Part shown: piece by piece, positions 27,483-52,844 of the stretch
Numbering within the stretch: position 1 is the first letter of the stretch
How the letters are laid out: each line of letters begins with the position of its first letter
NCBI GenBank assembly: GCA_002345725.1
Contig: DDWP01000020.1
Coordinates: forward strand, 1,433-65,432
Length of the DNA stretch: 64,000 nucleotides
Source: Candidatus Shapirobacteria bacterium UBA2283
GTDB lineage: Bacteria > Patescibacteriota > Microgenomatia > UBA12405
Direction: 5' to 3'
Translations under genes and position numbers: made by a program
The notes under the pieces: generated by a model
The model's input: only the letters and a program-made list of their open reading frames with translations
Databases searched by the model: none
Told to the model about the DNA's origin: nothing

Positions 27483-27486
27483 ACTT

Positions 27487-29451: not shown

Positions 29452-31296
29452 ATGTCAGAGATCAAAGAAGAAAAAATAACTCAGGATAGACACTACGAGC
29501 CCACGCCAGAAGAAGAAAAGCTTCTAACTAAGTGGAAAGCGAGATTCCGACGTGCTAAAGAATTTCGTGACCCGTATCAAGCGAAATGGCTCAGGATGTA
29601 TCAGCTCTATCGTGCCTATCAGAATAAGCAAAATTACGCTTACAACACGCGCTTAATGCCCCCCATTGCCTTTGAGATAGTGAAGACTGTAGTTTCCCGA
29701 CTGGCTACTGCCAAACGGAAAACACAAATCATTCCGCGCCACAGAGATGACGTTGAATCTCCGTCGCTGGGATCTTGGGATGACCTGGTTAACTATGACT
29801 TTGACATTATTGACCTGATCAAGAAGCTTCCAAGTTGGATCGAATCATCGGTCCTGTACGGTAACGGTGTGGTTAAGCTTGCTTGGAAAGTAATTACCAG
29901 GAAGAAGAAAACTGTATACGACGACCCAACCATGGGTCTGATTGACCTTTGGGAATTGCTCCCGGCGCCGGAAACTATTGATGACCTTCAGGACGGTTGC
30001 CCGTGGCTCATTCAACGCATTGTTAAAGGAAAAGAGAAAATAGAAAAGGAAGAAGAAAGCAGGGGTGATGATAAGATTTATAAGAATTTGGAGTTTTGTG
30101 AGCCAAAAATAGTTGAAGACTGGAAAAAGGAAAGATACGAGATTAACAGTAAGAAGATGTCTCAGGTAGATGGTGGAACTAAAAAGGAAGCTGATGGGGA
30201 AAAGGTTCTTCCGGCAAAACTCGATAAGGAAAAACAACTTGAACTCTGGGAGTGTTGGGATTATGAGGAAGATAAGCTGGTAGTGATCTGCAATGGTGAG
30301 GTGGTAATAAGAGATGACGATAATCCCTATCTTGAAGTCAACAATGGTCATATCTATGTTGATTTACCAGATATGCCCCTGCTATGGGAATTCTGGGCGA
30401 CCGGTCATATCGAACCCGTAGAAACGACAATCCATGAAATTGCGGATCTGAGAAATCAGCGTATGGATGATGTCATCCTGATGTTGGACCCGGTAGTCAA
30501 AATTCGTAAGGATTCTGGAATTACCAAAAACGATATTATCTTTTCTCCAGGTGCGACTTGGGAGTTGAGAAAGATGGATGATGTGGTTATCGAACGGCCA
30601 CCAGAAATAAGCCTCATGGGTGTTAATGAAGATAAATTAATGAGGGATGAAATTTCTCGCACTCTTGCCCTTGGCGAATATATGAGTGGCCAACCACAAT
30701 CTCCCGATGAACCCCTTGGAAAAGTGGCAACACTTATTGGCCAAAGTAATCTACGGCTTAGCATGAATGCTCAAAATATCGCTGTTGCCTTGACCCAGGT
30801 GGCCAACATTCTCATTCAACTTAATCAAGAGTTTATAAGCGAGGACAAGCTATATCGATTAATAGGTAAGGATGTAGATTTCAAAGAATTCAAGAAGGAA
30901 GATAAAAAAGTAGTAGTTGATGCGATTGTTGAAATTGAGCCGATAATCCCCCCAGATAAAACTACAAAACTAAATCAGGTCCTACTCATGTATGACAAGT
31001 TCATTGCTCAGGACAAGCCGGATCCAAATAATCCCGAGGAGGTAAGGCGATGGTTGAAACGTAAGCGAGAATTGCAAAAGATGATTTTGGAAGAGTTAGA
31101 TAAAGAAGAATACATAGAGCTTTTGTTGGGTCCCGATTCAGAAGCCAAGGAGCTACCACAAAATAATGATGCACAAGCCCCCATAACACCCGCTGAGGGG
31201 CAAACTCCACCAGCAGAGCCAACTACACCCGGTCCAAACAAAATTCAACAACTTATGGGTAAGATACCAATTTTAGGGAAGATGTTGGGAGGTTAA
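29452..31296 (+). CDS. putative phage portal protein
   Basis: 614 aa, first gene of the structural string, acidic C-terminus; assignment by size and position. Confidence 0.4.
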   Translation: MSEIKEEKITQDRHYEPTPEEEKLLTKWKARFRRAKEFRDPYQAKWLRMYQLYRAYQNKQNYAYNTRLMPPIAFEIVKTVVSRLATAKRKTQIIPRHRDDVESPSLGSWDDLVNYDFDIIDLIKKLPSWIESSVLYGNGVVKLAWKVITRKKKTVYDDPTMGLIDLWELLPAPETIDDLQDGCPWLIQRIVKGKEKIEKEEESRGDDKIYKNLEFCEPKIVEDWKKERYEINSKKMSQVDGGTKKEADGEKVLPAKLDKEKQLELWECWDYEEDKLVVICNGEVVIRDDDNPYLEVNNGHIYVDLPDMPLLWEFWATGHIEPVETTIHEIADLRNQRMDDVILMLDPVVKIRKDSGITKNDIIFSPGATWELRKMDDVVIERPPEISLMGVNEDKLMRDEISRTLALGEYMSGQPQSPDEPLGKVATLIGQSNLRLSMNAQNIAVALTQVANILIQLNQEFISEDKLYRLIGKDVDFKEFKKEDKKVVVDAIVEIEPIIPPDKTTKLNQVLLMYDKFIAQDKPDPNNPEEVRRWLKRKRELQKMILEELDKEEYIELLLGPDSEAKELPQNNDAQAPITPAEGQTPPAEPTTPGPNKIQQLMGKIPILGKMLGG

Positions 31297-31904
31297 TTTG
31301 CTCCCTTGAGGAAAAGAATTATTGGACGTGAGAAAACTGTTAATGCTGCCCCAATACTAAGCATGTGTTCAGGAGTCGGCACTTTTGTATTTAATGCCCC
31401 TTGTAAAATGGTTGTCTCAGAAGGGACGAGCTCGTCCCCAAACATTGGGCGGACAGTCATTACCTTTTTCAAATCTACCTCTGATAATGAATTAAGTCTT
31501 CTCTCGCAAAGTCTCACCGAATCGGCAAAAGCCATGCTCGAACGTGTCTTTGATGCGAAAGAACGGAACCCGGAAATGGGGCCAACTCTTAATCGTCCAC
31601 ATATATTGATGACTTTATTTATAGAACCCTTACGTTCAATAAAAGCATTAAGTACGGCACTTCCACCAGCACTTGTTCCAACTAAAGAAACTGAGTCTCC
31701 ATTTTCCGTAAACCCATCAATCATCTCAATAAGTCTATGTAGTTTTGGTTCAAATGAATTTTCTCCATCACGCCACCCAACGGAATAAACTACTGGTTTC
31801 AGGCCGTAGTTCTTCCAGCTTCTTATTGCCCATTCAAGTTTTTTAGTATCATCACCTAGACCTGGAATAACAATGACTTTATGTTCTTTTGGCATAGATG
31901 ACAA
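31293..31904 (-). CDS. alpha/beta-hydrolase fold protein
   Basis: GxSxG nucleophile elbow VSLVGTSAGGSAVL; convergent with the portal gene. Confidence 0.55.
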   Translation of the reverse strand: MSSMPKEHKVIVIPGLGDDTKKLEWAIRSWKNYGLKPVVYSVGWRDGENSFEPKLHRLIEMIDGFTENGDSVSLVGTSAGGSAVLNAFIERKGSINKVINICGRLRVGPISGFRSFASKTRSSMAFADSVRLCERRLNSLSEVDLKKVMTVRPMFGDELVPSETTILQGALNTKVPTPEHMLSIGAALTVFSRPIILFLKGAN

Positions 31905-31939
31905 AAATTAGTTTACTGGCTTATATATCTAAATTATTT

Positions 31940-32866
31940 TTATCCGCTAATTTGTTTAGCATATTCTTCATCAAATACATTACTGACCTGGTCAATTCGG
32001 AATCCCTGCCCTGTTTTATCCCAATCAATTGGTAACGTTTTGTATCCAGGTGGGATAAAGTCGTTTAACTTTTGGATATCACTTGGATCCAATTTGTGTC
32101 CAATTGCTGCCAGGTGTTCGTCGATATGTGCTTTATTTTCAGACTTGGTAAGAGGTAATAAGCCTTTAGATATAATCCAACTGAGGACCACTTGGTTTTG
32201 AGTTATTCCGTACTTTTTGGAAAGCTCGACTAAAATTGGCCAATTCCTGTTTGCGGTTCGGTTCCTTCTTAAAGGCTGATAAATGGCAGTCACGATTCCA
32301 TTATTCTGGGCGTACTCAATGGTTCCTTCCGCCTCATTAGCACGAACTTCAAAGTTGAAACACACTTCATGGGAGAATAATTTGTCGCCAAATCTTTGAT
32401 GATATTTTTTGAGTAGTTCTAAGTTTTCATTGGTAATACTTGTATATCTGGATTTACCGGCAGTTACAACCTTATCGGCCATACTGCAAACCTCATCAAA
32501 TTCATAATCTAGGAAAGCACTTTGAGTGTACTGAAGGGTATCAATATAGTCAGTATCGAATATTTTTAATAATCTATCGATTTCTGCTTCGGTATCTTGG
32601 AGTTTGTTATCCTTCAGATAAACTGCCTGAACAATAAATATCTCCTCACGGTTTTTACCTGACTTTCTGAAAGCTTCGGCAAGAATCTCAGCAGAGTAAC
32701 CCTGAGAATACCAAAGATTGGCTTCGACATAATTCATGCCTTTTTGAAACATGTAGGCAATAGCGTCAACTTGTTTATTCTTATCTAGGGTCTGATCTTT
32801 TTCTGCAAATCCACCAACACCCCAGGTTCCTATACCAATTGGAAATAAATCATTTTTGGTTATCAT
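31940..32866 (-). CDS. aldo/keto reductase family oxidoreductase
   Basis: N-terminal GIGTWGVGG, YVEANLWYSQGYSAE (AKR active-site region), 308 aa. Confidence 0.65.
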   Translation of the reverse strand: MITKNDLFPIGIGTWGVGGFAEKDQTLDKNKQVDAIAYMFQKGMNYVEANLWYSQGYSAEILAEAFRKSGKNREEIFIVQAVYLKDNKLQDTEAEIDRLLKIFDTDYIDTLQYTQSAFLDYEFDEVCSMADKVVTAGKSRYTSITNENLELLKKYHQRFGDKLFSHEVCFNFEVRANEAEGTIEYAQNNGIVTAIYQPLRRNRTANRNWPILVELSKKYGITQNQVVLSWIISKGLLPLTKSENKAHIDEHLAAIGHKLDPSDIQKLNDFIPPGYKTLPIDWDKTGQGFRIDQVSNVFDEEYAKQISG

Positions 32867-32871
32867 AATTT

Positions 32872-33840
32872 CTATACCACCACGTTTTGTGGAGCTCCAT
32901 TTATAAATGCCTTAACATTGGCAATAGCTAAAGTGTACGACTTAGTATTGGCGTCTTCGGTGTTGAAGGCATTGTGTGGAGTAACCACAATACGGTGATG
33001 TTTCAAATAAGGACTATCCGTAGGAACTGGCTTCATAATTTCAGTCTCAATTCCAAAACCAAAGATTTTGCCACTCTCAAGTCCCTTCAGAACAGCCTCT
33101 TTATTTGTAATTGGCTCCATTGCAGGATTAATCAAGATGACACCATCTTTCATGAGAGTTACTTCTTTTTCAGAGATCATATCTGTGGTTTCTTCTGTTA
33201 GTGGAACTGTGGTGACAATAACGTCGCTTTCTTTGAGAAGTGTTTCCAAATCGACTTGCTTGATGCCTTCGATTGTCTTTTGGCTACGGTTATAACCAAG
33301 AATTCGCATGTCAAAGCCAGAGGCAATTCGTGCCACTTTGGTTCCAATATCACCTAGACCAATGATTCCGATCGTTTTTCCATATACCTCTTTACCCACA
33401 TAGTCAGCAAACTTAAATGCTCCTTTATTTCGAACGTCGCGATCGAACTCAGTAATCCGCTTTGCAATGTCTAGGATTAAACCCCAAGCATGCTCTGCAA
33501 CTGATTCAGCATTAGCACCCTTGATGTTGCAAATCGTAATGCCTAGTTCTTTAGCTGCTTCAATGTCTACCCAAGCAACACCGACTGTTAGAGTGGCTAT
33601 CATTTTCAAGTGCTTCATTCCAGACAACAACTCTCTTGATATTTTTTCAATACCAGAGGAACCGGCAATCAAAATCTCTGCATCTCCTGCCCTGGATATA
33701 ACCTCATCTGCGGTCATTTTTTGAGCGTTTATGACAATCAATTCACCTAAACTCTTTAACTCACCCTCCATTGCCCCAGAAATTATTGGATTAGATGTGA
33801 TTAAGTAAATTTTCATATTAAACGCCTCGTCTTTGATCAA
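32872..33840 (-). CDS. D-isomer-specific 2-hydroxyacid dehydrogenase (glyoxylate/hydroxypyruvate reductase-like)
   Basis: NAD-binding GKTIGIIGLGDIGTKVARI, catalytic region VVTPHNAFNTED. Confidence 0.8.
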   Translation of the reverse strand: MIKDEAFNMKIYLITSNPIISGAMEGELKSLGELIVINAQKMTADEVISRAGDAEILIAGSSGIEKISRELLSGMKHLKMIATLTVGVAWVDIEAAKELGITICNIKGANAESVAEHAWGLILDIAKRITEFDRDVRNKGAFKFADYVGKEVYGKTIGIIGLGDIGTKVARIASGFDMRILGYNRSQKTIEGIKQVDLETLLKESDVIVTTVPLTEETTDMISEKEVTLMKDGVILINPAMEPITNKEAVLKGLESGKIFGFGIETEIMKPVPTDSPYLKHHRIVVTPHNAFNTEDANTKSYTLAIANVKAFINGAPQNVVV

Positions 33841-34288
33841 CTAGACCACCCATATAATTAGCTTTGTATATCAACTTTTCACCTTGGGTAATTTGTTCTT
33901 CTCCTGAATATCTTTCAACGTCTCCTGTCCAAGAATTGCGATATGTAAGTTCACCAACAACTAGCTCTTTTGGTCCACGGAAAGGAGCCTCTTCTGGCAT
34001 AGCTTTTAAAGCACCTCTCAAAGTGGCGTAGACTGGATCAGTCTCCACACCTTCGGCTACCCACCCGTAGTAAACCATCATCCAAATTGGTTTATCTTCA
34101 TTAAAGACGACGACTCTACCACCATAAGGTTCACCACCAAAGAAGTTATCATGAGATCGCCATTTGCCTTGAGTATAAGGAATTGTGGTAGATCCATCTG
34201 GCTCTTTTATCCACTTTTTCTCTTCACCACCAGCGTAACCGGCTTTATTTGAATCGATTAAAAACTGTCTTAAAGTTTCTTTATTCAT
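33818..34288 (-). CDS. hypothetical protein (156 aa), first gene of the reverse-strand cassette
   Basis: Overlaps the dehydrogenase start by 23 bp; no diagnostic motif. Confidence 0.45.
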   Translation of the reverse strand: MNKETLRQFLIDSNKAGYAGGEEKKWIKEPDGSTTIPYTQGKWRSHDNFFGGEPYGGRVVVFNEDKPIWMMVYYGWVAEGVETDPVYATLRGALKAMPEEAPFRGPKELVVGELTYRNSWTGDVERYSGEEQITQGEKLIYKANYMGGLVDQRRGV

Positions 34289-35960: not shown

Positions 35961-37127
35961 ATGCCATCAACAACAGGAATTAGAGGAACAGGAAATCAAG
36001 GAGTTACCAGAAAGTATGATGTCGCTGACGTTGTTTCGCTTTTGGATGTTAATAGATATCCATTGTTGGCGATTTTAACTAATGCTGGGAAAGATCCCGT
36101 TACTGGTGAGGGTAAGGCGATGAAGAAAAAAGAGTCGATGGACCCAGAATTTAAATGGTTTGAAGATGAATTCGGACGAAGACAGCTTACGGGAACGTCA
36201 ACAATTGACCCTGACGGTGGAAATCTAACGCTTACGAGCCAAGCTCAATACCTCCAGGTTGGAGATATAGTATTGGTCGCGAAGCAAAAGTGGGTTTTCC
36301 AAGTTAGTGCAATTGTCGATGCAAACACTATTTCGGTGGGACCGGAACTTGGAGGTGCGACTGGCGCCGCGGCTGATGCTTCAGGAGATGTTTGGCTTAT
36401 TGGTAACGCCAATGAAGAAGGATCTGGATTGAGAGAAATTAGATCTACAGTCATTCAAGAAATAGCTAACTACTGTCAAATTTTCAGAACTCCAGTTGGT
36501 ATCACTGAATCAGCAAAGAATACTAAGGGATGGACCAAAGAAAGCGATTTTGACTACCAGAGACGGAAAAAAGGAATTGAACACATGGTCGATATTGAAC
36601 GTTCATTTCTCTTCGGTAAAAAAGGAATTATTACTACTGGCTCACATCCAAAACGGTTTACTGGCGGTATCTTAGCTAGAATTGCAACATACGCTTCGGC
36701 GAGTGTTGATACTGAATCTGAATTCGAAGCATGGTTGGAAAGTCTATTTGCTTTTGGAAACACCGAGAAGTATCTTTTTGCGTCCGCATCTGTGGTCTCA
36801 ATGATCAACAGCTGGGCAAAAGGGAAAGTCCAGATAGTTAATCCGACAAAAACATATGGTCTTCGTATCGTAACTTATGATTCTCCGCACGGAACTTTGC
36901 ATATTATCAAGCACCCACTCTTAGCGGGTGTGACTTATGGTAACTATGCGGTCGGATTGGATATGGAAGCGTTGACTTACCGTTACTTAAGTAATCGTGA
37001 TACGAAACTATTAACTAACAGACAGGACCCTGGCGAAGATAGTCAGGTAGATGAGTATTTAACTGAATGTGGTCTGCAAATGGAGCAAGAAAAACGCCAT
37101 GCCATCATGAGCATCGGTGCTCTCTAA
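35961..37127 (+). CDS. putative major capsid protein
   Basis: 388 aa with SD AAGGGGGTGAA; position after the scaffold-like gene; assignment by size and synteny. Confidence 0.45.
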   Translation: MPSTTGIRGTGNQGVTRKYDVADVVSLLDVNRYPLLAILTNAGKDPVTGEGKAMKKKESMDPEFKWFEDEFGRRQLTGTSTIDPDGGNLTLTSQAQYLQVGDIVLVAKQKWVFQVSAIVDANTISVGPELGGATGAAADASGDVWLIGNANEEGSGLREIRSTVIQEIANYCQIFRTPVGITESAKNTKGWTKESDFDYQRRKKGIEHMVDIERSFLFGKKGIITTGSHPKRFTGGILARIATYASASVDTESEFEAWLESLFAFGNTEKYLFASASVVSMINSWAKGKVQIVNPTKTYGLRIVTYDSPHGTLHIIKHPLLAGVTYGNYAVGLDMEALTYRYLSNRDTKLLTNRQDPGEDSQVDEYLTECGLQMEQEKRHAIMSIGAL

Positions 37128-37222: not shown

Positions 37223-37855
37223 ATGTTATCACCCTTGCAAACTTTATTAAAGATAGGAGGTGAAAAACAAATGACAGAAATAAACGATAAAACATTAGAA
37301 GAAATGTCCATGGCAGAGCTATGGGGTGAAGCAAAACGCTTAGGAATATCGAAAGAAGGGAAAAAGGAAGACCTGATTGCTCGTATTAGAGAGGCGAAAG
37401 TAGGTGGCGCATCATCAGACAGTAACGATGATCAAGATCAGGAAAGAAAGGTAAGCAAGGAGGTTATCTATATCTCGAGATATCACGAACTTAAATTGGT
37501 CGTTGATCCATCTTACTTGAAAGAGGTTGGTGTCCGAGTGTTGACAATTAAGGGCAAGTGCATTCAGTTCCATGAGGGAATTTACAGAACCTCAGATCCT
37601 GAAGAAATTGCTTTTCTTAATAACCATCCTAATTATGGCAATGTTTTCCGCAAAATCGAACAGGTTGAAATTAAAGGAAAAAATCTTGAGCAAGTTTATA
37701 AGGATAAATTTAAAACGCTTGAAGAAAGAGAGCGGGACATTGCTATTAGAGAAGAATCCATAAAACGCAAAGAGATGGTGTCAAAAGGTCACCAAGAAGG
37801 TGCGTCTTCAGTTACTAGTGGAATTGAAGACACAACCAATCAGCCTAAATTTTAA
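37223..37855 (+). CDS. phage protein with Rho-N/SAP-like motif
   Basis: LEEMSMAELWGEAKRLGISKEGKKEDLIARIREA resembles a Rho_N/SAP motif; likely start MTEINDK (37271) after SD AGGAGGTGAAAAAC. Confidence 0.4.
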   Translation: MLSPLQTLLKIGGEKQMTEINDKTLEEMSMAELWGEAKRLGISKEGKKEDLIARIREAKVGGASSDSNDDQDQERKVSKEVIYISRYHELKLVVDPSYLKEVGVRVLTIKGKCIQFHEGIYRTSDPEEIAFLNNHPNYGNVFRKIEQVEIKGKNLEQVYKDKFKTLEERERDIAIREESIKRKEMVSKGHQEGASSVTSGIEDTTNQPKF

Positions 37856-37868: not shown

Positions 37869-38159
37869 ATGGAAAGCAGACCTAAATTTACAACGGCCAA
37901 TGTCACATTGACCAACGCCGACACTTGGTATCCCCTGCCAGATATTGCGGTCGGCGAAGGATGTGACGTGGTGATTAAGTCGAAGACTGGGAATACTGGT
38001 GCAATAAAGGTCGCCCATGATGATGCTACCAGCAAAGCATCGCCGTTTTTACTGGATAATCCTGGAGACAGTGTGAGCTTGAGAATTAAGGGAACGACTC
38101 AAATCGTTCTCTCTTCCAGTGTCGTTGGACAAGTTGTGGAGGTTGTTGCTGAACAATAA
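37869..38159 (+). CDS. hypothetical phage structural protein
   Basis: 96 aa ORF within the structural string. Confidence 0.4.
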   Translation: MESRPKFTTANVTLTNADTWYPLPDIAVGEGCDVVIKSKTGNTGAIKVAHDDATSKASPFLLDNPGDSVSLRIKGTTQIVLSSSVVGQVVEVVAEQ

Positions 38160-38161: not shown

Positions 38162-38749
38162 ATGGCCAAATTTAAACCATCATTAGTAAATATTCGAAGA
38201 ATGTTCTCGAAGATGAGAATCATCGTCAATACTGATGATGGCGAAGAAGATTACGACACAACCTTCTATCCCAACGGTTTTACCGCTAACCAAATTTCAA
38301 TCGGTAACGACAACACTGGCAGTAATGATGCTGGATTGAGATTCTTAAGACCACTACTGCCTAACAACGTCAAAATAACTAAAGCCATTCTGCGAGTCAA
38401 GTCGGCCGTTAATTCCACTAAGCGCCCCATCTGGGTAATTAAGGGGATTAAGCAAGCCAGTACCTTGAGCTTTGATTCCACTCACCGACCATCACAGCAA
38501 CCTAAAACGACTACCACAGTTGCCTGGGTCCCTGGAGCGGATTGGGTAATTAATAACTGGTATGAAAGTCCAGATATCAAAACGATTATCCAAGAAATCA
38601 TTGACCAAACAGAATTTACCAATAAAGCGATTGGCTTGGTGATTGAAGACAATGCCAGTCCAGCCAATAACTACGAGAACATCTGGGACTTTAACAGTGG
38701 AGCGGCTAACGCTGCTCAGCTTGTATTAACACTTGAACCAGATTTGTAA
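38162..38749 (+). CDS. single-copy paralog of the ~170-aa repeat domain found in 39000..40685
   Basis: DDGEEDYDTTFYPNGFTANQISIGNDNTGSNDAGLRF...PSQQPKTTTTVAW...YESPDIKTIIQEIIDQ parallels both repeats of the next large gene. Confidence 0.55.
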   Translation: MAKFKPSLVNIRRMFSKMRIIVNTDDGEEDYDTTFYPNGFTANQISIGNDNTGSNDAGLRFLRPLLPNNVKITKAILRVKSAVNSTKRPIWVIKGIKQASTLSFDSTHRPSQQPKTTTTVAWVPGADWVINNWYESPDIKTIIQEIIDQTEFTNKAIGLVIEDNASPANNYENIWDFNSGAANAAQLVLTLEPDL

Positions 38750-38764
38750 GGAGGTGAAAAAAAT

Positions 38765-39079
38765 ATGCAAACAAATGATGCTGCGCTATTACAAACGATT
38801 TTAGAAGCCATAGTTGTCAGTCCCGACAAAGTGGCAGTTGAGCGAACAGTCGACGAGATGGGAGTTTTACTTAAAGTCAAAGTCGATGAAAAAGATGCTG
38901 GAGCAGTGATTGGAAAAGAAGGTGCCACTATTGCTGCGATCCGAAAATTGATGGGCGTTTTCGGAAGAAAAAATAACGCTCGAATAAACATCAAGTTAGA
39001 TGTTCCGCCCAGAAAGAAATTACAAAAGTATGAAAAACCAAGTATTGAAGATCAAAACCACGATACAGGAAAACTCTGA
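38765..39079 (+). CDS. KH-domain protein (KhpA/UPF0109-like)
   Basis: GAVIGKEGATIAAIRKLMG (GxxG KH motif); SD AGGAGGTGAAAAAAAT; 3' end overlaps the next ORF. Confidence 0.5.
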   Translation: MQTNDAALLQTILEAIVVSPDKVAVERTVDEMGVLLKVKVDEKDAGAVIGKEGATIAAIRKLMGVFGRKNNARINIKLDVPPRKKLQKYEKPSIEDQNHDTGKL

Positions 39080-40685
39080 TGATGGCCGAGAGGTGGGCGT
39101 TTCGACTTGGTATGCAGATGGTAATGCCGGTAAGGTAATCACCTTCGGCAATTTTGACGGATTAAACCAAGCAGCAGCTCTTCGTTTTCGCGGAGTTAAC
39201 ATCCCCAAATTCGCCAAAGTCTTATTTGCCAGACTTAGACTAAAAGTGGCTTCGACTGATGATGTTGACTTTCCGGTGTTATTAAAAATCAAAGGTATTA
39301 AGGAAGCTGATCCTCAACCATTTAAACAAGTAAGTAGACCGTCAACACGCACTGCGACAATCAATGGTGTCGACTGGGATATTCTCAAAAAATGGAACGC
39401 CAATGAGTGGGTTCAAACTCCAAATTTGAAACTAATCATTGACGAGCTTGTCCAACAAGCTGACTGGAAACCAGGCAACGCTATGGCGTTTGTAATCAGC
39501 GATGACGGCAGCACAACCGGGAATGCTAAAACCTGCTGGGATTCAAGTAAAGGTAAAGGTTACGAAGCGGAGCTGGAAGTTTATTACATTACTCCAGGTA
39601 TCCATGAAGAAATCTCAATCATTAGTTTATCCGGTAACGACCGTGATGGTGAAGAAGATTATGACACCACCTGGTTTTCTAGTGGCTATGCCAGTAATCG
39701 TATAAGCATTGGCAATGACAGTACAGGTAGCTGTGATGCTGGGCTGATATTCAGTCCGGTCAACATTCCTCAAGGCGCTGAAATACTTTCGGCTCGATTA
39801 CTCCTAACGAGCGAAGCCCAATGGAATGCGATGCTGAACCTGCTGATTAAAGGCTTTGCCGAAGACAATGCTCCAGTATTTGCCTCAAATGGCTCAAACC
39901 GCCCCTCTACTCGAACTAAAACAACAACCCAAGCCCAATGGACATTGGGATTTGGTCAGGGTGGAGTTTTGGTGGGTGAACATTGGGCTGCCCAAAGTGT
40001 CTATGAATCGCCAGAGTTAAAAGAAATAATTCAAGAAATTCTTGATCGACCAGATTGGGCAAAAAATAGATTAGGGTTGGTGATTGAGGATTATGACTCC
40101 CAAGCTGGAGCGGTTAAAAACATTTTCGATTCAAATCAAGATGGTGGTAAATATGGAGCAAAACTTGTTATTGCTTGGACTTGTGAGCGACGAGTGACAT
40201 CAAGAGATAAAGACACTAAGGGTTATGACAAAGCAAATTACCCAGAATATATTGTGGTCCACCACTCTGCAACTCCTCGGGATAATACCCACTTTGCCAC
40301 CATAAAAAAATCACATATTGGTTATGGCTGGGATGACATCGGCTATCACAAATGGATTGCAGGAGGACTTGATGGTCTAGGGACTTTGATTCCTGGCCGA
40401 CCAGAAAACAAAATCGGCTCCCATAACGACAGCAACAAAATGAACTACCGTTCCATTGGTATTTGTGTCTGTGGTAGCTTCCACTCGACCGGTGGTAACG
40501 AGCAACCATCAGCCGAGCAGTTGGCCACCTTACAGACACTTCTGGATGATATCCGGATGAAGCGCAGGATTCCCAAAGAACGAGTCATGGGACACGGTGA
40601 GACACCGGAATCGACGACTGATTGCCCTGGTGATCACTTACTGGCTTATATCAAAAATTACCGGAAAACCGGGTCATTAACTTAA
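39000..40685 (+). CDS. N-acetylmuramoyl-L-alanine amidase (Amidase_2/PGRP) with two N-terminal copies of a novel repeat domain
   Basis: C-terminus YIVVHHSATPRD...GYHKWI...IGSHNDSNKMNYRSIGICVCG...TDCPGDH (amidase_2 zinc site); two ~170-aa repeats with S/GIGNDxTGSxDAGL and PSTRTxT motifs. Probable start MKNQVL (39030). Confidence 0.7.
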   Translation: MFRPERNYKSMKNQVLKIKTTIQENSDDGREVGVSTWYADGNAGKVITFGNFDGLNQAAALRFRGVNIPKFAKVLFARLRLKVASTDDVDFPVLLKIKGIKEADPQPFKQVSRPSTRTATINGVDWDILKKWNANEWVQTPNLKLIIDELVQQADWKPGNAMAFVISDDGSTTGNAKTCWDSSKGKGYEAELEVYYITPGIHEEISIISLSGNDRDGEEDYDTTWFSSGYASNRISIGNDSTGSCDAGLIFSPVNIPQGAEILSARLLLTSEAQWNAMLNLLIKGFAEDNAPVFASNGSNRPSTRTKTTTQAQWTLGFGQGGVLVGEHWAAQSVYESPELKEIIQEILDRPDWAKNRLGLVIEDYDSQAGAVKNIFDSNQDGGKYGAKLVIAWTCERRVTSRDKDTKGYDKANYPEYIVVHHSATPRDNTHFATIKKSHIGYGWDDIGYHKWIAGGLDGLGTLIPGRPENKIGSHNDSNKMNYRSIGICVCGSFHSTGGNEQPSAEQLATLQTLLDDIRMKRRIPKERVMGHGETPESTTDCPGDHLLAYIKNYRKTGSLT

Positions 40686-40689: not shown

Positions 40690-41334
40690 ATGCAATTACA
40701 AGAATTTAGACAAGATCTCGATGCCAGAATGTCGGCCGCTAAAATAAACGGATTCTGGAAGCAGCCGGACAAAGATCGCTGGATTAACAAAGGTATTGTC
40801 CGGGCGTGTAACTATGCCCGTTGGAAATTCTTGAGTAAACATGCCACTCAACTGGTTGAGAAAAACCCTAACGGAACTCTCAAAGAGAATTATTTTCTAC
40901 CGTTTGACTTCAAACCAGGTGGATTCATAACAATCAAAGTTGGTGGAATTCCCCATCATAAAATCAGTGAAGACGAATATACCCAACAGACCTATTCCTA
41001 TGAGCGAGTGGTGGCCATTATTGGTGACGAGTATCACCTTAATTTAAGTGAACTCACGGATGTTGCTGAAGGAGCGATCATCGACATTTATTACAAACGA
41101 CGTCCAGTGAGATTGGTCGAGGATGATGACGAGCCAATTACTCCTGAAGAAATGGATGAACCGGTCGTCAAGTTAGCACTTTCCGTTTGTTTAACCAAAA
41201 CCCCTGGTAAACAATCTGACTCCCAAAAAGAAGTAGTAGAGGCTCATACCATCCTGCAACAAATTAAAGATAGAGAGGATGAGGAACCAACCAGTGTCTA
41301 TAAAGGACAAGCTGGTAGTTCCCGGTGGGAATAA
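40690..41334 (+). CDS. hypothetical phage structural protein
   Basis: 214 aa, co-linear in the structural string. Confidence 0.4.
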   Translation: MQLQEFRQDLDARMSAAKINGFWKQPDKDRWINKGIVRACNYARWKFLSKHATQLVEKNPNGTLKENYFLPFDFKPGGFITIKVGGIPHHKISEDEYTQQTYSYERVVAIIGDEYHLNLSELTDVAEGAIIDIYYKRRPVRLVEDDDEPITPEEMDEPVVKLALSVCLTKTPGKQSDSQKEVVEAHTILQQIKDREDEEPTSVYKGQAGSSRWE

Positions 41335-42802: not shown

Positions 42803-44104
42803 ATGTTGACTGATTTAATACAAAAAGTATTTGGAAATAAGGAGGTTACCGATACTCCGTTTCCAGTCGTGCCAACTCACACTCATAACAGCATTGACTC
42901 ACCAGCCCTAGCTCCTGGATCTGTTAGTACAGTCAATATTAAACCTAATGCAGTTGATGAAAGTAAGCTCATGGATTTATCGGTAACTGAGGAAAAGTTG
43001 GCTGAAGCAGCTGTCGCCACCCAAAAAATAAAAGATGATGCGATTACTGCCGCCAAAGTCTGGAAAGGAGGGTCAGTAATTACCCTCTCTGCCCAAATTG
43101 CAGAAGCGATTATCTTAACGGCACATATTCAAGACTTAGCGGTGAAATGGGCCAAGATTGGAAATCTTGAGGTTGGCAATAGCAAAATTATGGATGCAGC
43201 AATAAGCAATGCCAAGATTCAGGACTTATCAGTCACCAATGGCAAAATCGGACTTTTGGAAGTTGGTAACTCTCGAATAATGAATGCTGCCATCAGTACC
43301 GCAAAAATACAAGAATTGGCCGTTGAGTGGGCTCAGATTGCAACGCTCGCAGTTGGCAACTCAAAAATTATGGATGCCGCTATTAGTACGGCCAAGATTC
43401 AAAACTTAGCTGTCACTGATGCTGAAGTAAATGATTTGAATGCAGCCAAAATATCGGCAGGACTGATGACCGCTGACAGGATTTGGGGTGGTGCTGGGTA
43501 TTTTGATTACATCCAAGTTCGTGAATGTGGTACTCAAGCGGTTAATGTTGCTGGAAATATTAATAAAACAGGAACCTGCAACTTTGCTATCCCTCACCCA
43601 CTGAAACCTGGCAAGCAGTTAGTTTATACCGGAATTGAATCGGCCGAGGTAATGCTCGTCGAGCGCGGGAGTAGCCAACTCCAAAACGGTCAAAAACGAA
43701 TTGATTTCTCTGATCACTACAAAGCAGTCAGTGATCCCAGAAAAGCGACAGCCTATCTCACCCCTCGAGAAGATTGCAAAGGATTACTACTCCTAGAAAC
43801 CGCTGAAGACCACATCACTGTTAAAGAAATGAGTAATGGTAGATCAAACGCCAAATTTGATTACATTATTTTTACGGTCCGTAAAGGTTTCTATGGATTT
43901 GATTTTGAACCAGAGGATCTCTCACTTCTCCAAAATGACGGTGAAGATGAAGAATCGTTCAAACAACGCTATCACGATCACCGGATCAAATTAATTCGTA
44001 AAAAAGGCGGTCCAGATATTGATACCAAAGTCGCTGAATTTCACCAAGCGTGGATCTCAACTCAAGGAAATAAAAAAGTTAATCAAAAGGAGGTGAACAC
44101 ATAA
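42803..44104 (+). CDS. tail-fibre-like protein with 22-aa tandem repeats
   Basis: Four consecutive ~22-aa units AKIQ(D/E/N)LAVxWAxIxxLEVGNSKIMDAAIS(N/T); 66-bp DNA periodicity. Confidence 0.5.
   Translation: MLTDLIQKVFGNKEVTDTPFPVVPTHTHNSIDSPALAPGSVSTVNIKPNAVDESKLMDLSVTEEKLAEAAVATQKIKDDAITAAKVWKGGSVITLSAQIAEAIILTAHIQDLAVKWAKIGNLEVGNSKIMDAAISNAKIQDLSVTNGKIGLLEVGNSRIMNAAISTAKIQELAVEWAQIATLAVGNSKIMDAAISTAKIQNLAVTDAEVNDLNAAKISAGLMTADRIWGGAGYFDYIQVRECGTQAVNVAGNINKTGTCNFAIPHPLKPGKQLVYTGIESAEVMLVERGSSQLQNGQKRIDFSDHYKAVSDPRKATAYLTPREDCKGLLLLETAEDHITVKEMSNGRSNAKFDYIIFTVRKGFYGFDFEPEDLSLLQNDGEDEESFKQRYHDHRIKLIRKKGGPDIDTKVAEFHQAWISTQGNKKVNQKEVNT
43125..43450. repeat. ~66-bp tandem coding repeats (about 4 units) inside the tail-fibre-like gene
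   Basis: Repeated GCCAAGATTCA(G/A)GA(C/A)TTA...GTTGGCAA(T/C)(AGC/TCA)AAAATTATGGATGC(A/C)GC units. Confidence 0.6.
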
Positions 44105-45172: not shown

Positions 45173-48100
45173 ATGGACAACTTTTTAGAACAACTAAAGA
45201 AAAACATTACCTCGTCGTTTGCCAATACCAAACAGTCAGTGGGTGATATTTTTGGTAAGGCTCAAACAAGTCTGACTAGTCTGGTGCGTGGTGGTCAACA
45301 AAAAGTTGATGAGGTTATTAAACCACTGCAATACGATATCGCAATCTCTGGCCCAACAAGTGGAAGCTACAAACCGTTCAAGAATTTATATTTGGAGACG
45401 GCAGCCCAAGCGTTAGGAGTTGGAGCTCGGGACACTGATGTTTTGGAGAGATTGCCCAGTGCAACTTTTGGTGCACTTAAGGGTGCTGGCAATGGATTAG
45501 GTGAAGCGTTGTCGTTTGGTTGGTGGAAACCAGAAATAAAGTATGCCGATGATATAGAAAAACAAGCTGGTGACATGACTGAGATTGAGTTCAACGTCTT
45601 GGGAACCATTGGAACGTTTTTGGTTGGTGGCGAATTGGTCCAAGGAGCTTTGCGCGGTGTGCCCCTTCTGGCACGGGTAGCAACTGTCGCTCCTAGAACT
45701 TTCAATGTGTTATCTACTGGGCTGACGTTTGCTGGACTCACTCAAATTCAAAAAGATGAAGCGCAAAAGAATGCATTACAGCGAGCAAAAGATTTTATGG
45801 GTGATTTTGCTCTCGGTGGAGCCTTCTCAATTGCCGGAATGAAAACATCATTTCTGAAGTCATCAGCCATTATCGGTCCAGCAACTTATGTCACCTCACT
45901 TCTAAAAGGAGAGTCAAACGGTGATGCGCTTAAAGATACAGCAGCCATGATGGGGCTCCACTCCCTTAATTTCGCGGTGGCTAAGTTTCTACCTAATGGA
46001 TCAGAAATAGAAAATCGAATAGAAAAAGCGGCCAGTGAGCAGCTCAAAATAACAAAGGCTGAAGCCATGGAGTATCTGGGCATTAGTGACAAAGCTACTG
46101 CTCAGGAGATGAAACAAGCCTGGAAGAATAAGGTGGTTGATATTACTAAGCGCTTCCCAGCTCAGGCCAATCAAACACCACAAGAAATGGGAGTATTTAA
46201 TCAAGCTTGGAATACTGCCAACAGAGCCTATGAGTTTTTAGCTAAAGTCAGTAACCCAGAGGGTTATACAGGGAAATCATTCGCTCAAGAGTTTCAAGAT
46301 CTATATTACCAACTCTGGAGAGATGTTCCCGATAAGCGTTCTGCGATTGTCAAAGCCGTCCGTAGTTTACCTGCGGGACTGTCAGTTCGGGCTACTCTTA
46401 ATGATGGCCAGCGTAATGAAATTGTTTCGGCGCTTGGTGGTGAAGGGGCACAAACGAGACTGGGGAAAGTGGCGGAACTGACTGATGCAGATTTGGTGTC
46501 AGTGGCCATGGAAAACAAAATAAAAGTGACTCCTTCAAAACCCGCAGTCACTGAAGAGTTGGATATAAGCACTGAAACATATAAGCATGGCACACCTGTG
46601 CCAGATAAAATTTTGAAGGAAGGTTTTAGTTTAGTAAAAACAGGTGAAACGAGCGGTTATGGAGGTGTTATGGGTAGAGGTATTTACCTTGATCTCACTC
46701 CCGAAGGCGAAGGGGCAAAACTGTACGGTACAGTTGTTGATGCAAAGATTAAAAAGGGGCTGAATTTATTCGAGTGGTCAGGAAAACTTGATGAATTGTA
46801 CACAGAAGCTACAAAGTATGGAGATCCAGAAACAATAACCGATGTTTTACTTAAGAAGGGATATGACGGAGTAAAGGGATTGAATCAAATGGTGATTTTT
46901 GACCCAAAAAATGTCGTACCAGTTGTAGACGGAAAACCTACTGTCACCTCAAAAATATCTTTGTCACCACAAGAACAAAAAGCTGTCAAAGCGGCCGAGA
47001 TCCGAGATAAATATATAACACCAGAAGAAAAAGAATTGGCAGATGCGGAAAAGATTCCTAGTATCGGGGACATTCTCCAGTCATCAAGCTTTCAGGACAG
47101 ATTACAAGGAAAAGTAATTGCGCCGACCACCCCGAGAGCTGATCAATTGAGAGAACCACCTTCCGGTAAACCGCCTCGTTCACCTCAGGAGATCTCCTTA
47201 AACGACGCCCCACCTTCACCTGAAGGCAGTGCCTTGGATGAGATCGATAAAATGGTTGGCAAGATCTCAACCGCAAAGTCGATTCTGGGAAATGTAAAGG
47301 ATGCAATTCAATCTTTCCCACGAATGTTTACTGACCGCTTTGCTCCCATTAAACAATTTGAGGATCAAATTACCAAACTTCAAGGACAGCCAATTGATAT
47401 TGATTCCAGTCCATATGTGGCAGCCAGAATGTATGCTGGTCGCTTTGGAATTGTTGAGGGAAGCTTCAAAGATTTATATAACATCATACAGCCGGTTCGA
47501 AAGCTTCGAGCTGACTTTACTCGATTTGTTTTGTCCGAACGCGCTATTGAACGAGGAGAGCGAGGGTTTGATAACCCAAATGGAGTTACAAAGGAAACTG
47601 CAGAGCAAGCACTCGTCGAGCTAAAAGATAAAGTAGGTGACAAGGCCTTCAAAGCCTTCGAGCAGGTCGGCCAGGGAATTCAAAATTGGTCCATTAAATC
47701 AATTCTCCAGCCGATGAAAGATGCCGGAATCCTGGGTAAAGAAGCTTTTACTTCAATTATTGAGAACAATAAAAAATGGATGCCATTCCATGTTTTGGAA
47801 TATATGCCCTCAATTGAGCAAGCCGATCACATGGCGGTAGGAAGCGAAACGTTTTCAGTAAGTAAACAAGGCATCGTTAAATCTCTAGAAGGAACTGAGA
47901 AAATCATCCGTGATCCATTTATGTCGATCGTGGATAACCTGACAAAGTCGGTAAGTCTGATAGAACGTAATAAAGTAGCCCAGAAACTCATTGAACTGAG
48001 AAATAGCCATCCAGATACAGCTAAAGAGTTTATAAAGTTTTTACCGGATGGTCTGCGACCACCACCAGAATGGGAAGCGATTAGTGTCTTTATTGATGGC

Positions 48101-49798
48101 AAAGTAACCAAGTGGGCGGTTCCCAAAGATCTCTCAGAAGCCATGCATGCCCTGTCACCGGCTGAAACCGGTTTAATGGGTAAAATGATCCTAGCTTCTT
48201 CGAAAGTCTTCAAAGCCGGAACCACCTCACTCTATTTCCCTTTTACTCTTTCAAACGCCATTCGGGATTACCAAACTGCCACAATCGTTTCCAAATGGGG
48301 TTTCAATCCGGCCAACTGGCTGTCGGGATTTAAGGATGGTCTAAAAGCTGCCTTTAAGTTTGACTCCAAAGCCTACGACGAATTTATGACTAACAAAGGT
48401 GGTTATGGTGGTTACATCGAATCAGCCAAGGGGCTAGCTGTTGCCTCTGAACAACTTTTCACCCCTGAGTGGATGAATCGAGCAAAAATTGTCGTCAATC
48501 CATTTCAACTGATTAGTACCTTCTCGGAAGCGATCGAGCTGGCTCCACGACTCGGAGTTTATAAAAAAGGAATCGCTCAGGGTGCAACCCAACTAGAAGC
48601 TGCCTATGAAGCTCGGAATGTGACGGTAGATTTTGCTAAAGCCGGAATTGAGGGTCGACTCATCAATATGTGGATTCCTTTCGTGAATGCCCGTTGGCAA
48701 GGGCTTCTCACCATCGGCCGAGTAATGAAAGAGAATCCAATCAGAACGACGGCTCGTGCTTTGGCATTGACGGTCCTACCTGGTGTGGCTACTTACTTTT
48801 ATAACGTCATGACCCATGAAGATCTTTGGGACGATATTCCTCAATGGGCTAAAGATACTTATTTTATTATGATCGTAGGTGAAGGCCAGGATAGTCAGGG
48901 CAATCGGGTACCAAAAGTGGTTCAGATTCCCAAGGGCGATATGGGAACGATTTTCTTCAACCCGTTAATGTATGCGTTGGAGTATGTCCGAAAACAAGAG
49001 CCAACCAACCTCTTCAAACTAGGTCTGGAGTGGATGAGCCAATTATCGCCGGTTGCGTTTACCAGAGATGGAGAATTGTCGGCTCAGTCCTTCCTTGGTA
49101 GCGCCCTGCCTCCAGCATTAAAGGTGCCGTTGGAACTAGCGACAAACACTAATCTTTTCACCGGATTCCCAATTGTCCCACAACGTCTCGAGAAAGTGGC
49201 TCCAACGGAACAATATGACGAAAAAACGCCACAAGTCGCCGTTACGGTTGGACGAGCTTTGGGCATCAGCCCGATGAAGCTGACCCATGCTATTTCCGGA
49301 CTTGCCGGAAGCTTCTCTCGCCAAGTGATGAACCCGGCCGATATCATCAACCTCACCACTCAGCGCTTCTATCGGCTTCAGGGTGGGCAAAAACAACAAG
49401 CTGCCTGGGATATTAAGTACGATGCCGAAGTCGGTTATAACACCACACGGCTACAGATGAAACGATTGATCGAGCAAGGCAAGCTGCAGGAAGCTCAACA
49501 GATGGCCCTCAAATGGAACCAGGAGGCAGGAAAGCTCATTCCCGAGGTTGTACCACTCTTAATGAAAGATGACCCCAAGGAAGCGGCGTTATTCCAAAGT
49601 AGCATCACCTTTGATGCTGCAGATTTACAGCGACTCTTAAAAACAACTCTCCCTGGTGGAGTTCCGGAAAATACTGGAACTGATCAAACACTAATCCCGC
49701 TTCAACCTGGACTTAATACTAATTCGACCATGGGACAACTATTCCAGGGTGGTCAACAAAATAGTGGTGACACTATAAGGAGGTTAATTTACAAATGA
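45173..49798 (+). CDS. giant (1541 aa) virion/ejection-type polyvalent protein with embedded ADP-ribosyltransferase-like domain
   Basis: Hydrophobic Gly/Ala-rich N-terminal segments; internal KHGTPVP...GYGGVMGRGIYLDL...GLNQMVIFDPKNV resembles the H-Y-[EDQ] ART motif triad. Confidence 0.45.
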   Translation: MDNFLEQLKKNITSSFANTKQSVGDIFGKAQTSLTSLVRGGQQKVDEVIKPLQYDIAISGPTSGSYKPFKNLYLETAAQALGVGARDTDVLERLPSATFGALKGAGNGLGEALSFGWWKPEIKYADDIEKQAGDMTEIEFNVLGTIGTFLVGGELVQGALRGVPLLARVATVAPRTFNVLSTGLTFAGLTQIQKDEAQKNALQRAKDFMGDFALGGAFSIAGMKTSFLKSSAIIGPATYVTSLLKGESNGDALKDTAAMMGLHSLNFAVAKFLPNGSEIENRIEKAASEQLKITKAEAMEYLGISDKATAQEMKQAWKNKVVDITKRFPAQANQTPQEMGVFNQAWNTANRAYEFLAKVSNPEGYTGKSFAQEFQDLYYQLWRDVPDKRSAIVKAVRSLPAGLSVRATLNDGQRNEIVSALGGEGAQTRLGKVAELTDADLVSVAMENKIKVTPSKPAVTEELDISTETYKHGTPVPDKILKEGFSLVKTGETSGYGGVMGRGIYLDLTPEGEGAKLYGTVVDAKIKKGLNLFEWSGKLDELYTEATKYGDPETITDVLLKKGYDGVKGLNQMVIFDPKNVVPVVDGKPTVTSKISLSPQEQKAVKAAEIRDKYITPEEKELADAEKIPSIGDILQSSSFQDRLQGKVIAPTTPRADQLREPPSGKPPRSPQEISLNDAPPSPEGSALDEIDKMVGKISTAKSILGNVKDAIQSFPRMFTDRFAPIKQFEDQITKLQGQPIDIDSSPYVAARMYAGRFGIVEGSFKDLYNIIQPVRKLRADFTRFVLSERAIERGERGFDNPNGVTKETAEQALVELKDKVGDKAFKAFEQVGQGIQNWSIKSILQPMKDAGILGKEAFTSIIENNKKWMPFHVLEYMPSIEQADHMAVGSETFSVSKQGIVKSLEGTEKIIRDPFMSIVDNLTKSVSLIERNKVAQKLIELRNSHPDTAKEFIKFLPDGLRPPPEWEAISVFIDGKVTKWAVPKDLSEAMHALSPAETGLMGKMILASSKVFKAGTTSLYFPFTLSNAIRDYQTATIVSKWGFNPANWLSGFKDGLKAAFKFDSKAYDEFMTNKGGYGGYIESAKGLAVASEQLFTPEWMNRAKIVVNPFQLISTFSEAIELAPRLGVYKKGIAQGATQLEAAYEARNVTVDFAKAGIEGRLINMWIPFVNARWQGLLTIGRVMKENPIRTTARALALTVLPGVATYFYNVMTHEDLWDDIPQWAKDTYFIMIVGEGQDSQGNRVPKVVQIPKGDMGTIFFNPLMYALEYVRKQEPTNLFKLGLEWMSQLSPVAFTRDGELSAQSFLGSALPPALKVPLELATNTNLFTGFPIVPQRLEKVAPTEQYDEKTPQVAVTVGRALGISPMKLTHAISGLAGSFSRQVMNPADIINLTTQRFYRLQGGQKQQAAWDIKYDAEVGYNTTRLQMKRLIEQGKLQEAQQMALKWNQEAGKLIPEVVPLLMKDDPKEAALFQSSITFDAADLQRLLKTTLPGGVPENTGTDQTLIPLQPGLNTNSTMGQLFQGGQQNSGDTIRRLIYK

Positions 49799-50898: not shown

Positions 50899-51154
50899 CA
50901 TATATCCCGAATGGAAGAAAGTCGCTTGGAGGTTTCTCCGAGTGTTTATATCAGCCTTTTTATTCACCGGATCGATGGTGTTGATAAACGCCCAGCCAGT
51001 AGCACTGAGTAGTTGGGACAAATTTCTCAATACTCTGATATTGCCATTTTTATTGGCAGGTGGGGTGGCTGGCTTAAATGCAGTAGGAAAACTTTTGAGA
51101 GATTTGTTTGGCACTGAGGATCAAACAGGCCTCGTCGACAAATTACCATTCTAA
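50882..51154 (+). CDS. holin (two TM helices)
   Basis: TM1 FLRVFISAFLFTGSMVLI, TM2 FLNTLILPFLLAGGVAGLNAV; SD AAAGGAGGTGAGAATA; overlaps the endolysin gene end. Confidence 0.6.
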   Translation: MRIMDNIYPEWKKVAWRFLRVFISAFLFTGSMVLINAQPVALSSWDKFLNTLILPFLLAGGVAGLNAVGKLLRDLFGTEDQTGLVDKLPF

Positions 51155-51159
51155 GCACT

Positions 51160-51411
51160 ATGAATAACAATAGCCAATCCACTGACACAAATATGAGAGA
51201 AAGAATTGCCAAGCTCGAGGAACGAGTGGACGGTGGATTGGGTTATATCAATAAAGAGCTGGTGGAAATTAAAGAGAACCATCTCTATCACCTACAAGCC
51301 GATGTAACGGATTTGAAAATGAAGGTTAATACTCTAGCGGTGAAAGTAAGTGTGGGAGTAGCAATTGCGACAATTCTAATCGATTTAGTTTTTCGCTTCC
51401 TACTGAAGTAG
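51160..51411 (+). CDS. XhlA-like lysis-associated protein
   Basis: N-terminal coiled-coil RIAKLEERVDG plus C-terminal TM VSVGVAIATILIDLVF. Confidence 0.45.
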   Translation: MNNNSQSTDTNMRERIAKLEERVDGGLGYINKELVEIKENHLYHLQADVTDLKMKVNTLAVKVSVGVAIATILIDLVFRFLLK

Positions 51412-52467: not shown

Positions 52468-52549
52468 GTCGCTGTGGTGAAATTGGTATACACGTACGTC
52501 TCAGAAGCGTATGGAGCAATCCGTGGAGGTTCGATTCCTCTCAGCGACA
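52468..52549 (+). tRNA. tRNA-Leu (anticodon CAG)
   Basis: GTCGCTGTGGTGAAATTGGTATACACGTACGTCTCAGAAGCGTA...GGTTCGATTCCTCTCAGCGACA; loop CTCAGAA; long variable arm. Confidence 0.75.
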
Positions 52550-52610
52550 CATTTAGTTAATAACTACGAATTAACAATTATAAATTAATTGGTATAATAA
52601 CTTTACTTCC

Positions 52611-52682: not shown

Positions 52683-52708
52683 ACATTGTATTGAAATATT
52701 AATAATTT

Positions 52709-52781: not shown

Positions 52782-52844
52782 CAAAATAATCCTCCTTTTG
52801 ATATGTTTAGGGGGATTTTTGTTGGTATAATAGCCTTAGCTTAA

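Follow-up and report, generated by a model that had tools for sequence, protein, structure and literature searches.

A candidate virion-borne amidase with two CBM96-like modules in the capsid-to-adaptor gene block of Patescibacteria phages

We analysed a window of 64,000 nucleotides (positions 1,433 to 65,432 of contig DDWP01000020.1, assembly GCA_002345725.1, Candidatus Shapirobacteria bacterium UBA2283), which is a prophage region of a genome of the Patescibacteria, or candidate phyla radiation (CPR). Its SU10/Bruynoghevirus-like prophage carries, between the capsid gene block and the head-to-tail adaptor gene, an open reading frame (ORF B) that joins two tandem copies of a module resembling the carbohydrate-binding family CBM96 to an N-acetylmuramoyl-L-alanine amidase domain, and, shortly upstream, a stand-alone copy of the same module (ORF A). 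B keeps this place in all related loci compared and its catalytic residues are intact, and a separate and variable lysis cassette lies elsewhere in the window. The reading that we prefer, and to which we give an even chance of being right, is that B is a lysin carried on the virion and aimed at the wall by glycan-binding modules during entry, and that A is an adhesin displayed on the virion.

ORF A (38162-38749, forward strand, 195 amino acids (aa); all positions are those of the window) consists of a short conserved N-terminal segment, which begins MAKFKP and has a predicted helix at aa 8-17, followed by one A-type module. ORF B (39030-40685, forward strand) contains a rep1-type module (repeat 1, 39045-39590), a rep2-type module (repeat 2, 39606-40181), a low-confidence linker (40182-40235) and an Amidase_2 domain of the PGRP/T7-lysozyme type (40236-40670; PF01510). 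Our AlphaFold2 (AF2) model of B reached a mean predicted local distance difference test score (pLDDT) of 85.8 and a predicted template modelling score (pTM) of 0.72, with pLDDT below 50 in the linker, at aa 390-402 of the 551-aa form. An initial annotation of this stretch, made from the letters alone, had started B at 39000, which gives 561 aa; the homologues cover 98% of the query and begin at the equivalent of its M11 (MKNQV...), so the true start is probably 39030, for a product of 551 aa (the numbering used below unless the 561-aa form is named).

The three module copies that the initial annotation had placed here, one free and two fused to the amidase, proved to be genuine relatives. BLASTP aligns A over its full length with repeat 2, its nearest relative (aa 200-391 of the 561-aa form; 39% identity, E 1e-35), and with repeat 1 (aa 19-192 of the same form; 33% identity, E 4e-24). 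Each copy spans about 170-190 aa, and a profile of A homologues found exactly three copies, and nothing else, in the six-frame translation of the whole window. The ordered motifs recognised earlier are likewise present in all three: they are nearly letter-for-letter the same in A and repeat 2 (DGEEDYDTT, SIGND-TGS-DAGL-F, RPS-R-KTTT-W, YESP-IK-IIQEI-D and GLVIED, with repeat 2 itself reading DGEEDY, SIGND, RPSTRT, YESPELKEIIQEI and GLVIED), and they are degenerate in repeat 1 (DDGREV, TFGNFDG..AAALRF, RPSTRTAT, VQTPNLKLIIDELV and AFVISD). A, rep1 and rep2 form three old paralogue classes, and because orthologues across phages are 51-88% identical while the paralogues share only 30-41%, their divergence implies that the three hold distinct, maintained roles; on the same figures we rejected a recent duplication of the repeats at the DNA level.

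Some B homologues are longer (862-866 aa) and possess, N-terminal to repeat 1, an extra A-type module and about nine repeats of 13 aa of the (I/V)TKSL(R/K)Y type. Such tandem (I/V)TKSL(R/K)YxV units, which lie at aa 177-300 of protein P0071 and aa 1-120 of P0080, resemble the first beta-strand of the module (QVLKIKT) and may form a stalk for oligomerisation or attachment.

Between A and B lies a further gene that was missing from the earlier list, encoding a KH-domain protein of the KhpA/B-like type (38765-39079, forward strand, 104 aa; PF13083, E 5e-16). This ORF, which has a strong ribosome-binding site (GGAGGTG) and overlaps the start of B by 50 nucleotides, stands outside the repeat family and is an optional insert, found only in Daviesbacteria-type loci (L002-L009, L014 and L023) and absent from Parcubacteria-type loci. 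The KH domain being RNA-binding, the protein may regulate translation of B.

The amidase assignment of the initial annotation was borne out at 66.3 bits against a PF01510 cut-off of 26, with aa 413-545 of the 561-aa form matching profile positions 3-131 of 131, and Foldseek relates the domain to AmiD and AmpDh2. In alignments H411 and Y439 of B fall on H17 and Y46 of T7 lysozyme, within its VH-SAT and GYH motifs, and H522, T530 and C532 fall within a GH....TDCPG motif aligned to the PGRPs. These five residues are invariant in 42 of 42 homologues, which are 54-94% identical. An H/Y/H/T/C set is the signature of catalytic PGRPs; in T7 lysozyme the zinc ligands are H17, H122 and C130 and the catalytic tyrosine is Y46. 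Because the zinc and catalytic residues are both intact and invariant, the domain is predicted to be active. The best PHROG matches of B are families of amidases and endolysins. In a Foldseek search with the full B model, matches to a CBM22 tandem, birnavirus VP2 and the phi812 baseplate had template modelling (TM) scores of 0.10-0.17 and were rejected as meaningless.

The position of B was compared across 22 loci, comprising two loci from metagenome-assembled genomes (MAGs), one Logan contig, 18 IMG/VR viral contigs and locus L023. In 22 of 22, B lies between the capsid gene block and the adaptor gene, and in none of the 22 does it stand beside holin-like genes, in agreement with the earlier remark that the amidase sits amid structural genes and not in the lysis cassette. 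IMG/VR contigs of 20-62 kb have a near-identical gene order, and one of the loci, L010, has TerL upstream of the portal gene. Identity of B to the window copy is 51-71% across loci, similar to that of the portal, adaptor and nozzle proteins and above that of the fibre and p354; by this measure of sequence conservation B behaves as a core gene of the morphogenesis block. The nearest homologues are on Candidatus Daviesbacteria contigs of 0.95-1.1 Mb, and further members of the family occur in Woesebacteria, Nomurabacteria, Moranbacteria and the Parcubacteria group.

A second peptidoglycan hydrolase, noticed in the initial annotation as C39-like, does occupy a lysis cassette (49795-51411) after the gene of a giant LPD38 protein. 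Its C39_2-like peptidase gene (49795-50898, forward strand; PF13529, E 8e-11), with a start that overlaps the LPD38 stop codon, is followed on the same strand by a holin-like ORF of 90 aa with two transmembrane (TM) segments (50882-51154) and an ORF of 83 aa with a C-terminal TM segment (51160-51411), which places the holin-like ORFs about 10 kb downstream of B. The C39 peptidase recurs in L005, L007 and L014. In the equivalent place L001 has a 75-aa ORF, a single-domain Amidase_2 protein of 193 aa, a 60-aa ORF and an integrase, and the 193-aa Amidase_2 is also found in L013, L016, L018, L019 and L021; L010 has a match resembling the B amidase near its right end. The holin-linked hydrolase is thus exchangeable (C39 against Amidase_2) while B is constant, as one would expect if B were not the endolysin.

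The repeat module had been described as a novel domain, and in this respect the initial annotation has to be corrected. Pfam and PHROG searches with A and the repeats gave no match, but A aligns with the NCBIfam model NF033679 (DNRLRE_dom) over profile positions 8-164 of 164 with E 1.9e-6 and 28 bits (cut-off 34). Repeat 2 is weaker (18-22 bits) and repeat 1 has no NF033679 match. Among A homologues, 24 of 30 match NF033679 at E <= 0.01 (best 7.5e-8), and 3 of 30 match Pfam CBM96 (PF24517) below threshold (best 1.4e-4). The AF2 model of A, built from a 30-sequence alignment, has a pLDDT of 87.1 and a pTM of 0.84 and is a beta-sandwich with one short helix, and its best Foldseek matches in the PDB are the chondroitin-sulfate-binding module 8WAB (E 3.5e-7, TM 0.59-0.65), the alginate-binding CBM96 module 7VBO (E 3.6e-6, TM 0.54/0.58) and BMP9 prodomains (E 2.6e-6). 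The fold of A is therefore of the CBM96 beta-sandwich type on these Foldseek matches, and the repeats in the B model find the same targets; of the two possibilities raised earlier, a known carbohydrate-binding module or an Ig-like fold, the models favour a CBM96-like fold and not an Ig-like one. 7VBO is the founding CBM96 structure (TM6-N4 of Dp0100), and its authors noted a link to DNRLRE, with about 30% identity (PMC9971899). The best match among predicted viral structures (BFVD) is a 'CBM96 domain-containing protein' of Brevibacillus phage SecTim467, followed by a pectate lyase of Bacillus phage SP-15, gp367 of phage G and several tail proteins. A profile search of the A family against PDB sequences returned a single match, to ClpX (E 0.57), which we regard as spurious; for want of a real match there, the CBM96 link rests on NCBIfam and on the modelled fold. 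Judged by these models, the repeat is a diverged member of the DNRLRE/CBM96 superfamily of carbohydrate-binding beta-sandwiches and not a new fold. We infer that the modules bind carbohydrate; their characterised relatives bind acidic polysaccharides, and the invariant acidic motif DDGEED, as read from the sequence, may be a metal site.

Beyond these phages the A profile retrieves 10,422 cluster representatives at E <= 1e-3, 3,149 of them at E <= 1e-10. The majority are giant surface proteins, 1,000-5,900 aa long and with 3-8 copies of the module, and the named members come from MAGs of Gammaproteobacteria and Planctomycetota. In ten such members that we checked, Pfam annotates only the neighbouring domains (Fn3, PKD, Big_9, polysaccharide deacetylase, chitobiase-C and LamG-type), and DNRLRE_dom is present below threshold in five of the ten. 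A tblastn search with the repeats across 50,697 deposited phage genomes gave one weak match (27% identity, E 8e-6), to the Methanosarcinales virus vir530, and no named, sequenced phage with this architecture. Apart from vir530 (BK063674.1, dsDNA virus, match at positions 80-577), the deposited viral genomes yielded no relative of the repeat; the DNRLRE domain was originally described from Methanosarcina surface proteins.

The place of A in the gene order, which we call the A slot, is filled differently in different phages. The ORF that follows the 96-aa gene always begins MA[KDE][FY] or MS[KD]F, and its body differs among loci: an A-type module in the window and in L002, L003, L005, L008, L009, L011 and L012; DUF2793 and then an A-type module in L006, L007, L014 and L023 (protein P0038); and an unrelated body of about 175 aa in L001, L004, L010, L013 and L015-L021. 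Because L004 has the third body while its major capsid protein (MCP) is 92% identical to that of the window, sequence comparison indicates that the body is swapped horizontally between phages. The 195-aa A-slot ORF of L001 was considered as an A homologue on account of an LR-F..P....I..A.IR likeness and rejected, as HHalign against the A profile gave a probability of 0.4%. DUF2793 is reported to be the conserved N-terminal, particle-attaching domain of tail-fibre and receptor-binding proteins with variable C-termini, found in particles by mass spectrometry (bioRxiv 10.1101/150227), and has been implicated in host recognition by the gene transfer agent RcGTA (PMC5026251). In its sequence organisation the A slot behaves like that of a receptor-binding protein. 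The A-slot proteins of the four DUF2793 loci resemble DMS3 gp49, JBD26 gp59 and Rcc00171 of RcGTA in pairing a conserved virion anchor with a variable, host-binding C-terminus, whereas A of the window lacks DUF2793 and has only a conserved N-terminal segment of about 17 aa.

Compared with known systems, the module shares with DNRLRE (NF033679) and CBM96 (PF24517; 7VBO, 8WAB) a length of about 160-190 aa, a beta-sandwich that is also the fold of TGF-beta/BMP prodomains, a full-length match to the hidden Markov model below threshold, and an occurrence in tandem in surface proteins and in fusion with polysaccharide-active enzymes, including phage tail and depolymerase proteins. It differs in its own motifs (DDGEED, RPSxRxKT, YESPxxKxIIQEI), in scores below the curated cut-offs and in that its fusion partner is a peptidoglycan amidase instead of a lyase or glycosidase. 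Like the virion-associated hydrolases phi29 gp13, T7 gp16 (N-terminal transglycosylase) and SU10 gp20, B is a hydrolase of the structural module that stands apart from a holin-linked endolysin; SU10 has been proposed to degrade peptidoglycan at entry by means of its ejection protein gp20 (PMC9509320). Unlike them, B, a putative virion protein, is an amidase with CBM-like modules encoded between capsid and adaptor genes and does not form part of a tail-tip or ejected core protein. With modular Amidase_2/PGRP endolysins it shares an Amidase_2 domain with the intact H/Y/H/T/C set and non-catalytic targeting modules, and it departs from them in its reversed domain order, the CBM96-like module and its conservation as a core gene; its neighbours are A or the KH gene on one side and the adaptor gene on the other, and no holin gene adjoins it as it would a canonical holin-linked endolysin. 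The initial annotation had held that an assignment of the repeats to a well-known binding module within an ordinary endolysin architecture would speak against its proposal. The first half of this was found in part, in the distant DNRLRE/CBM96 kinship, whereas the architecture is not the ordinary one: the modules are N-terminal, B is not linked to a holin gene, and a separate lysin exists.

In the window and in the 22 related loci the structural genes run in the order scaffold, MCP, SAP-domain protein, 96-aa protein (p96), A slot, KH gene where present, B, adaptor, a nozzle-like protein of 491 aa, fibre, a protein of 354 aa (p354) and the giant LPD38 protein. The portal gene is SU10-type (29452-31296), as is the MCP (35961-37127, forward strand; PF17236, E 5e-44), which is also akin to the MCPs of the Pseudomonas 119X/PaMx41 group (Bruynoghevirus), Caulobacter phage Kuura and Roseobacter phage CRP-810. 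The SAP-domain protein (37223-37855, forward strand, 210 aa; SAP is a DNA-binding motif) and p96 (37869-38159, forward strand) are kept between the MCP gene and the A slot, directly 3' of the MCP gene in all loci, and neither PHROG nor Pfam gives either a structural assignment. Directly downstream of B lies the SU10-type head-to-tail adaptor gene (40690-41334, forward strand), identified from PF24175 (E 1e-6) and synteny. The tail-fibre gene (42803-44104, forward strand) contains an internal direct repeat of 124 nucleotides (43118-43241 and 43298-43421; 73% identity, 180-nucleotide spacing), which corresponds to repeated 'AISxAKIQxLAV' peptide units of the fibre product. The LPD38 protein (45173-49798, forward strand, 1541 aa) is kept after the fibre genes in all related loci; LPD38 (aa 1217-1395) is its sole recognised domain, no lysin domain was recognised in the window copy, and it is probably an ejected internal protein.

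Several parts of the window lie outside this block. Between the portal and scaffold genes, four host-like genes on the reverse strand (31293-34288) encode a 203-aa product without a Pfam match, an aldo/keto reductase, a D-2-hydroxyacid dehydrogenase and a DUF5680 protein; L023 has MarR and efflux-pump genes at this spot instead, which looks like a hot spot for cargo insertion within the structural operon. The terminase gene (10188-11735) is separated from the portal gene by 17.7 kb of cargo and defence genes. This gap includes a reverse-strand defence island (17453-29070) with a Cas4-like nuclease (18285-19046), Gabija GajB (19061-21001) and GajA (20983-23244), and the hsdR, hsdS and hsdM genes of a type I restriction-modification system (23261-29070). 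It also contains a YceG/MltG-like endolytic transglycosylase gene (13552-14556, forward strand), which would be a third wall-active enzyme if it belongs to the phage and is not host cargo; L001 likewise has a YceG gene a few kb upstream of its portal gene. A large serine recombinase gene (1792-3408, reverse strand) is flanked by three tRNA genes (1555-1859 region), and six more (Leu, Phe, Gly, Val, Leu and Gln; 52468-53160, forward strand) follow the lysis cassette and a NUDIX gene. The tRNA clusters and the recombinase likely mark the borders or the integration region of the prophage, but no att-type direct repeats at its edges turned up when we searched for them.

How might such a protein be used? 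We propose that B is a modular zinc N-acetylmuramoyl-L-alanine amidase, predicted to be competent, in which two anciently diverged tandem CBM96-like modules are connected by a flexible linker to a C-terminal PGRP/T7-lysozyme-type domain, and that it is a core morphogenesis-operon gene in SU10/Bruynoghevirus-like podophages and prophages of Patescibacteria. Most likely, B rides on the virion and acts at entry: its two modules would dock onto a cell-wall glycopolymer or onto glycan strands, and the amidase would strip stem peptides from MurNAc, thereby making a local opening in the wall for the short tail. A different, exchangeable hydrolase beside the holin-like genes would carry out lysis from within. 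A, the stand-alone paralogue behind a short conserved N-terminal anchor, is most likely an exchangeable adhesin of the fibre or decoration type, displayed on the virion. The earlier suggestion of a virion-associated lysin with binding modules is strengthened by the position of B in the structural block of 22 loci, and several points weigh against it. The presence of A and B in the particle is argued from gene content and gene order, no virion-anchoring domain was recognised in B, and the window copies stay below the curated DNRLRE/CBM96 cut-offs (34 bits for NF033679; the gathering score for PF24517). Most virion-associated lysins known to date are domains within tail-tip, tape-measure or ejected proteins. 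Since the C39 gene and the stop codon of the LPD38 ejection-type gene overlap, the virion enzyme might in principle be the C39 peptidase and not B, and late co-expression with structural genes would suit an endolysin as well. In SU10, moreover, the slot between MCP and adaptor encodes gp10, a putative minor capsid protein and not a tail lysin (PMC9509320).

B could instead be a second, late-expressed endolysin whose CBM96-like modules are an N-terminal cell-wall-binding domain and which acts from within, together with the C39 peptidase or the small amidase, A then being a free binding module or a leftover duplicate. The union of binding and catalytic modules follows the standard lysin logic for monoderm hosts, and the intact catalytic residues, the PHROG matches to amidases and endolysins, the lack of a recognised virion anchor and the timing that late operon expression would provide all fit. 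We nevertheless hold this to be unlikely, if worth serious consideration, because in the 22 loci B always lies between capsid and adaptor genes and never next to a holin-like gene, the window and about 10 loci have a distinct hydrolase beside holin-like ORFs, that cassette enzyme is swapped while B is conserved like a core structural gene, and the paralogous A slot resembles that of a receptor-binding protein. Alternatively, A and B could decorate the capsid or neck, with the CBM96-like modules projecting from the head for reversible, Hoc-like adhesion to host glycans and the amidase serving as a peptidoglycan-binding or wall-loosening head appendage. Their genes directly follow those of MCP, SAP protein and p96 and precede the adaptor gene, in the slot of SU10 gp10; the related Bruynoghevirus Pa223 bears a capsid spike; and A combines a short N-terminal arm with a globular beta-sandwich. 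The gene position is thus similar to that of the capsid decoration proteins SU10 gp10 and phi29 gp8.5, but A has a CBM96-like jelly roll and not the Ig-like fold of the gp10 class, its fusion to DUF2793 points to the tail over the head, and an intact amidase would have no obvious benefit on a capsid, and its invariant residues argue for catalysis over mere binding. We consider this decoration unlikely.

Still further from our expectation is that the prophage has been domesticated or is defective, as a tailocin- or GTA-like element with which the CPR cell would direct B against the wall of its host bacterium. Many CPR bacteria live as episymbionts, the TerL and portal genes lie 17.7 kb apart with cargo and defence genes between them, and host-like genes lie inside the structural block. 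Against this stand the near-identical gene order on IMG/VR viral contigs of 20-62 kb, the location of TerL upstream of the portal gene in L010, the presence of lysis cassette, recombinase and terminase, and the structural ORFs, none of which shows decay, so that we give this explanation very little weight. A more speculative proposal concerns the family as a whole, and we hold it to be unlikely: A, rep1 and rep2 could define a sister family of DNRLRE/CBM96, large and un-annotated (some 10,000 clusters at 50% identity, for the most part in giant surface proteins), that CPR phages have taken up to provide recognition for a virion-borne amidase and for an exchangeable adhesin. If true, the phage would carry a self-targeting wall-cutting enzyme outside the usual context of tail-tip or ejection proteins, and the modules would be the first specific probes for cell-wall glycopolymers of Patescibacteria.

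The components described here, modular lysins, virion-associated hydrolases and CBM96, are all of known kinds, and no concept is overturned. In the literature on CBM96, DNRLRE and CPR phage lysins we did not find this architecture described, and among the searched publications that name DNRLRE or CBM96 we found no link to lysins. What is new is the joining of two DNRLRE/CBM96-like modules and Amidase_2 in a core gene of the structural module of CPR phages, together with a free paralogue in a slot like that of receptor-binding proteins, and the recognition that the module is part of a very large family (10,422 clusters) which Pfam misses and which can be linked to DNRLRE/CBM96. Few CPR bacteria, or Patescibacteria, have been cultured, and knowledge of their envelopes and phages is poor. 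B is a concrete, expressible reagent for this group, as its repeats could probe the CPR wall polymer and its amidase could be a lytic tool. Our proposal of a wall-directed amidase on the virion furthermore offers a testable model of how short-tailed phages may breach CPR cells.

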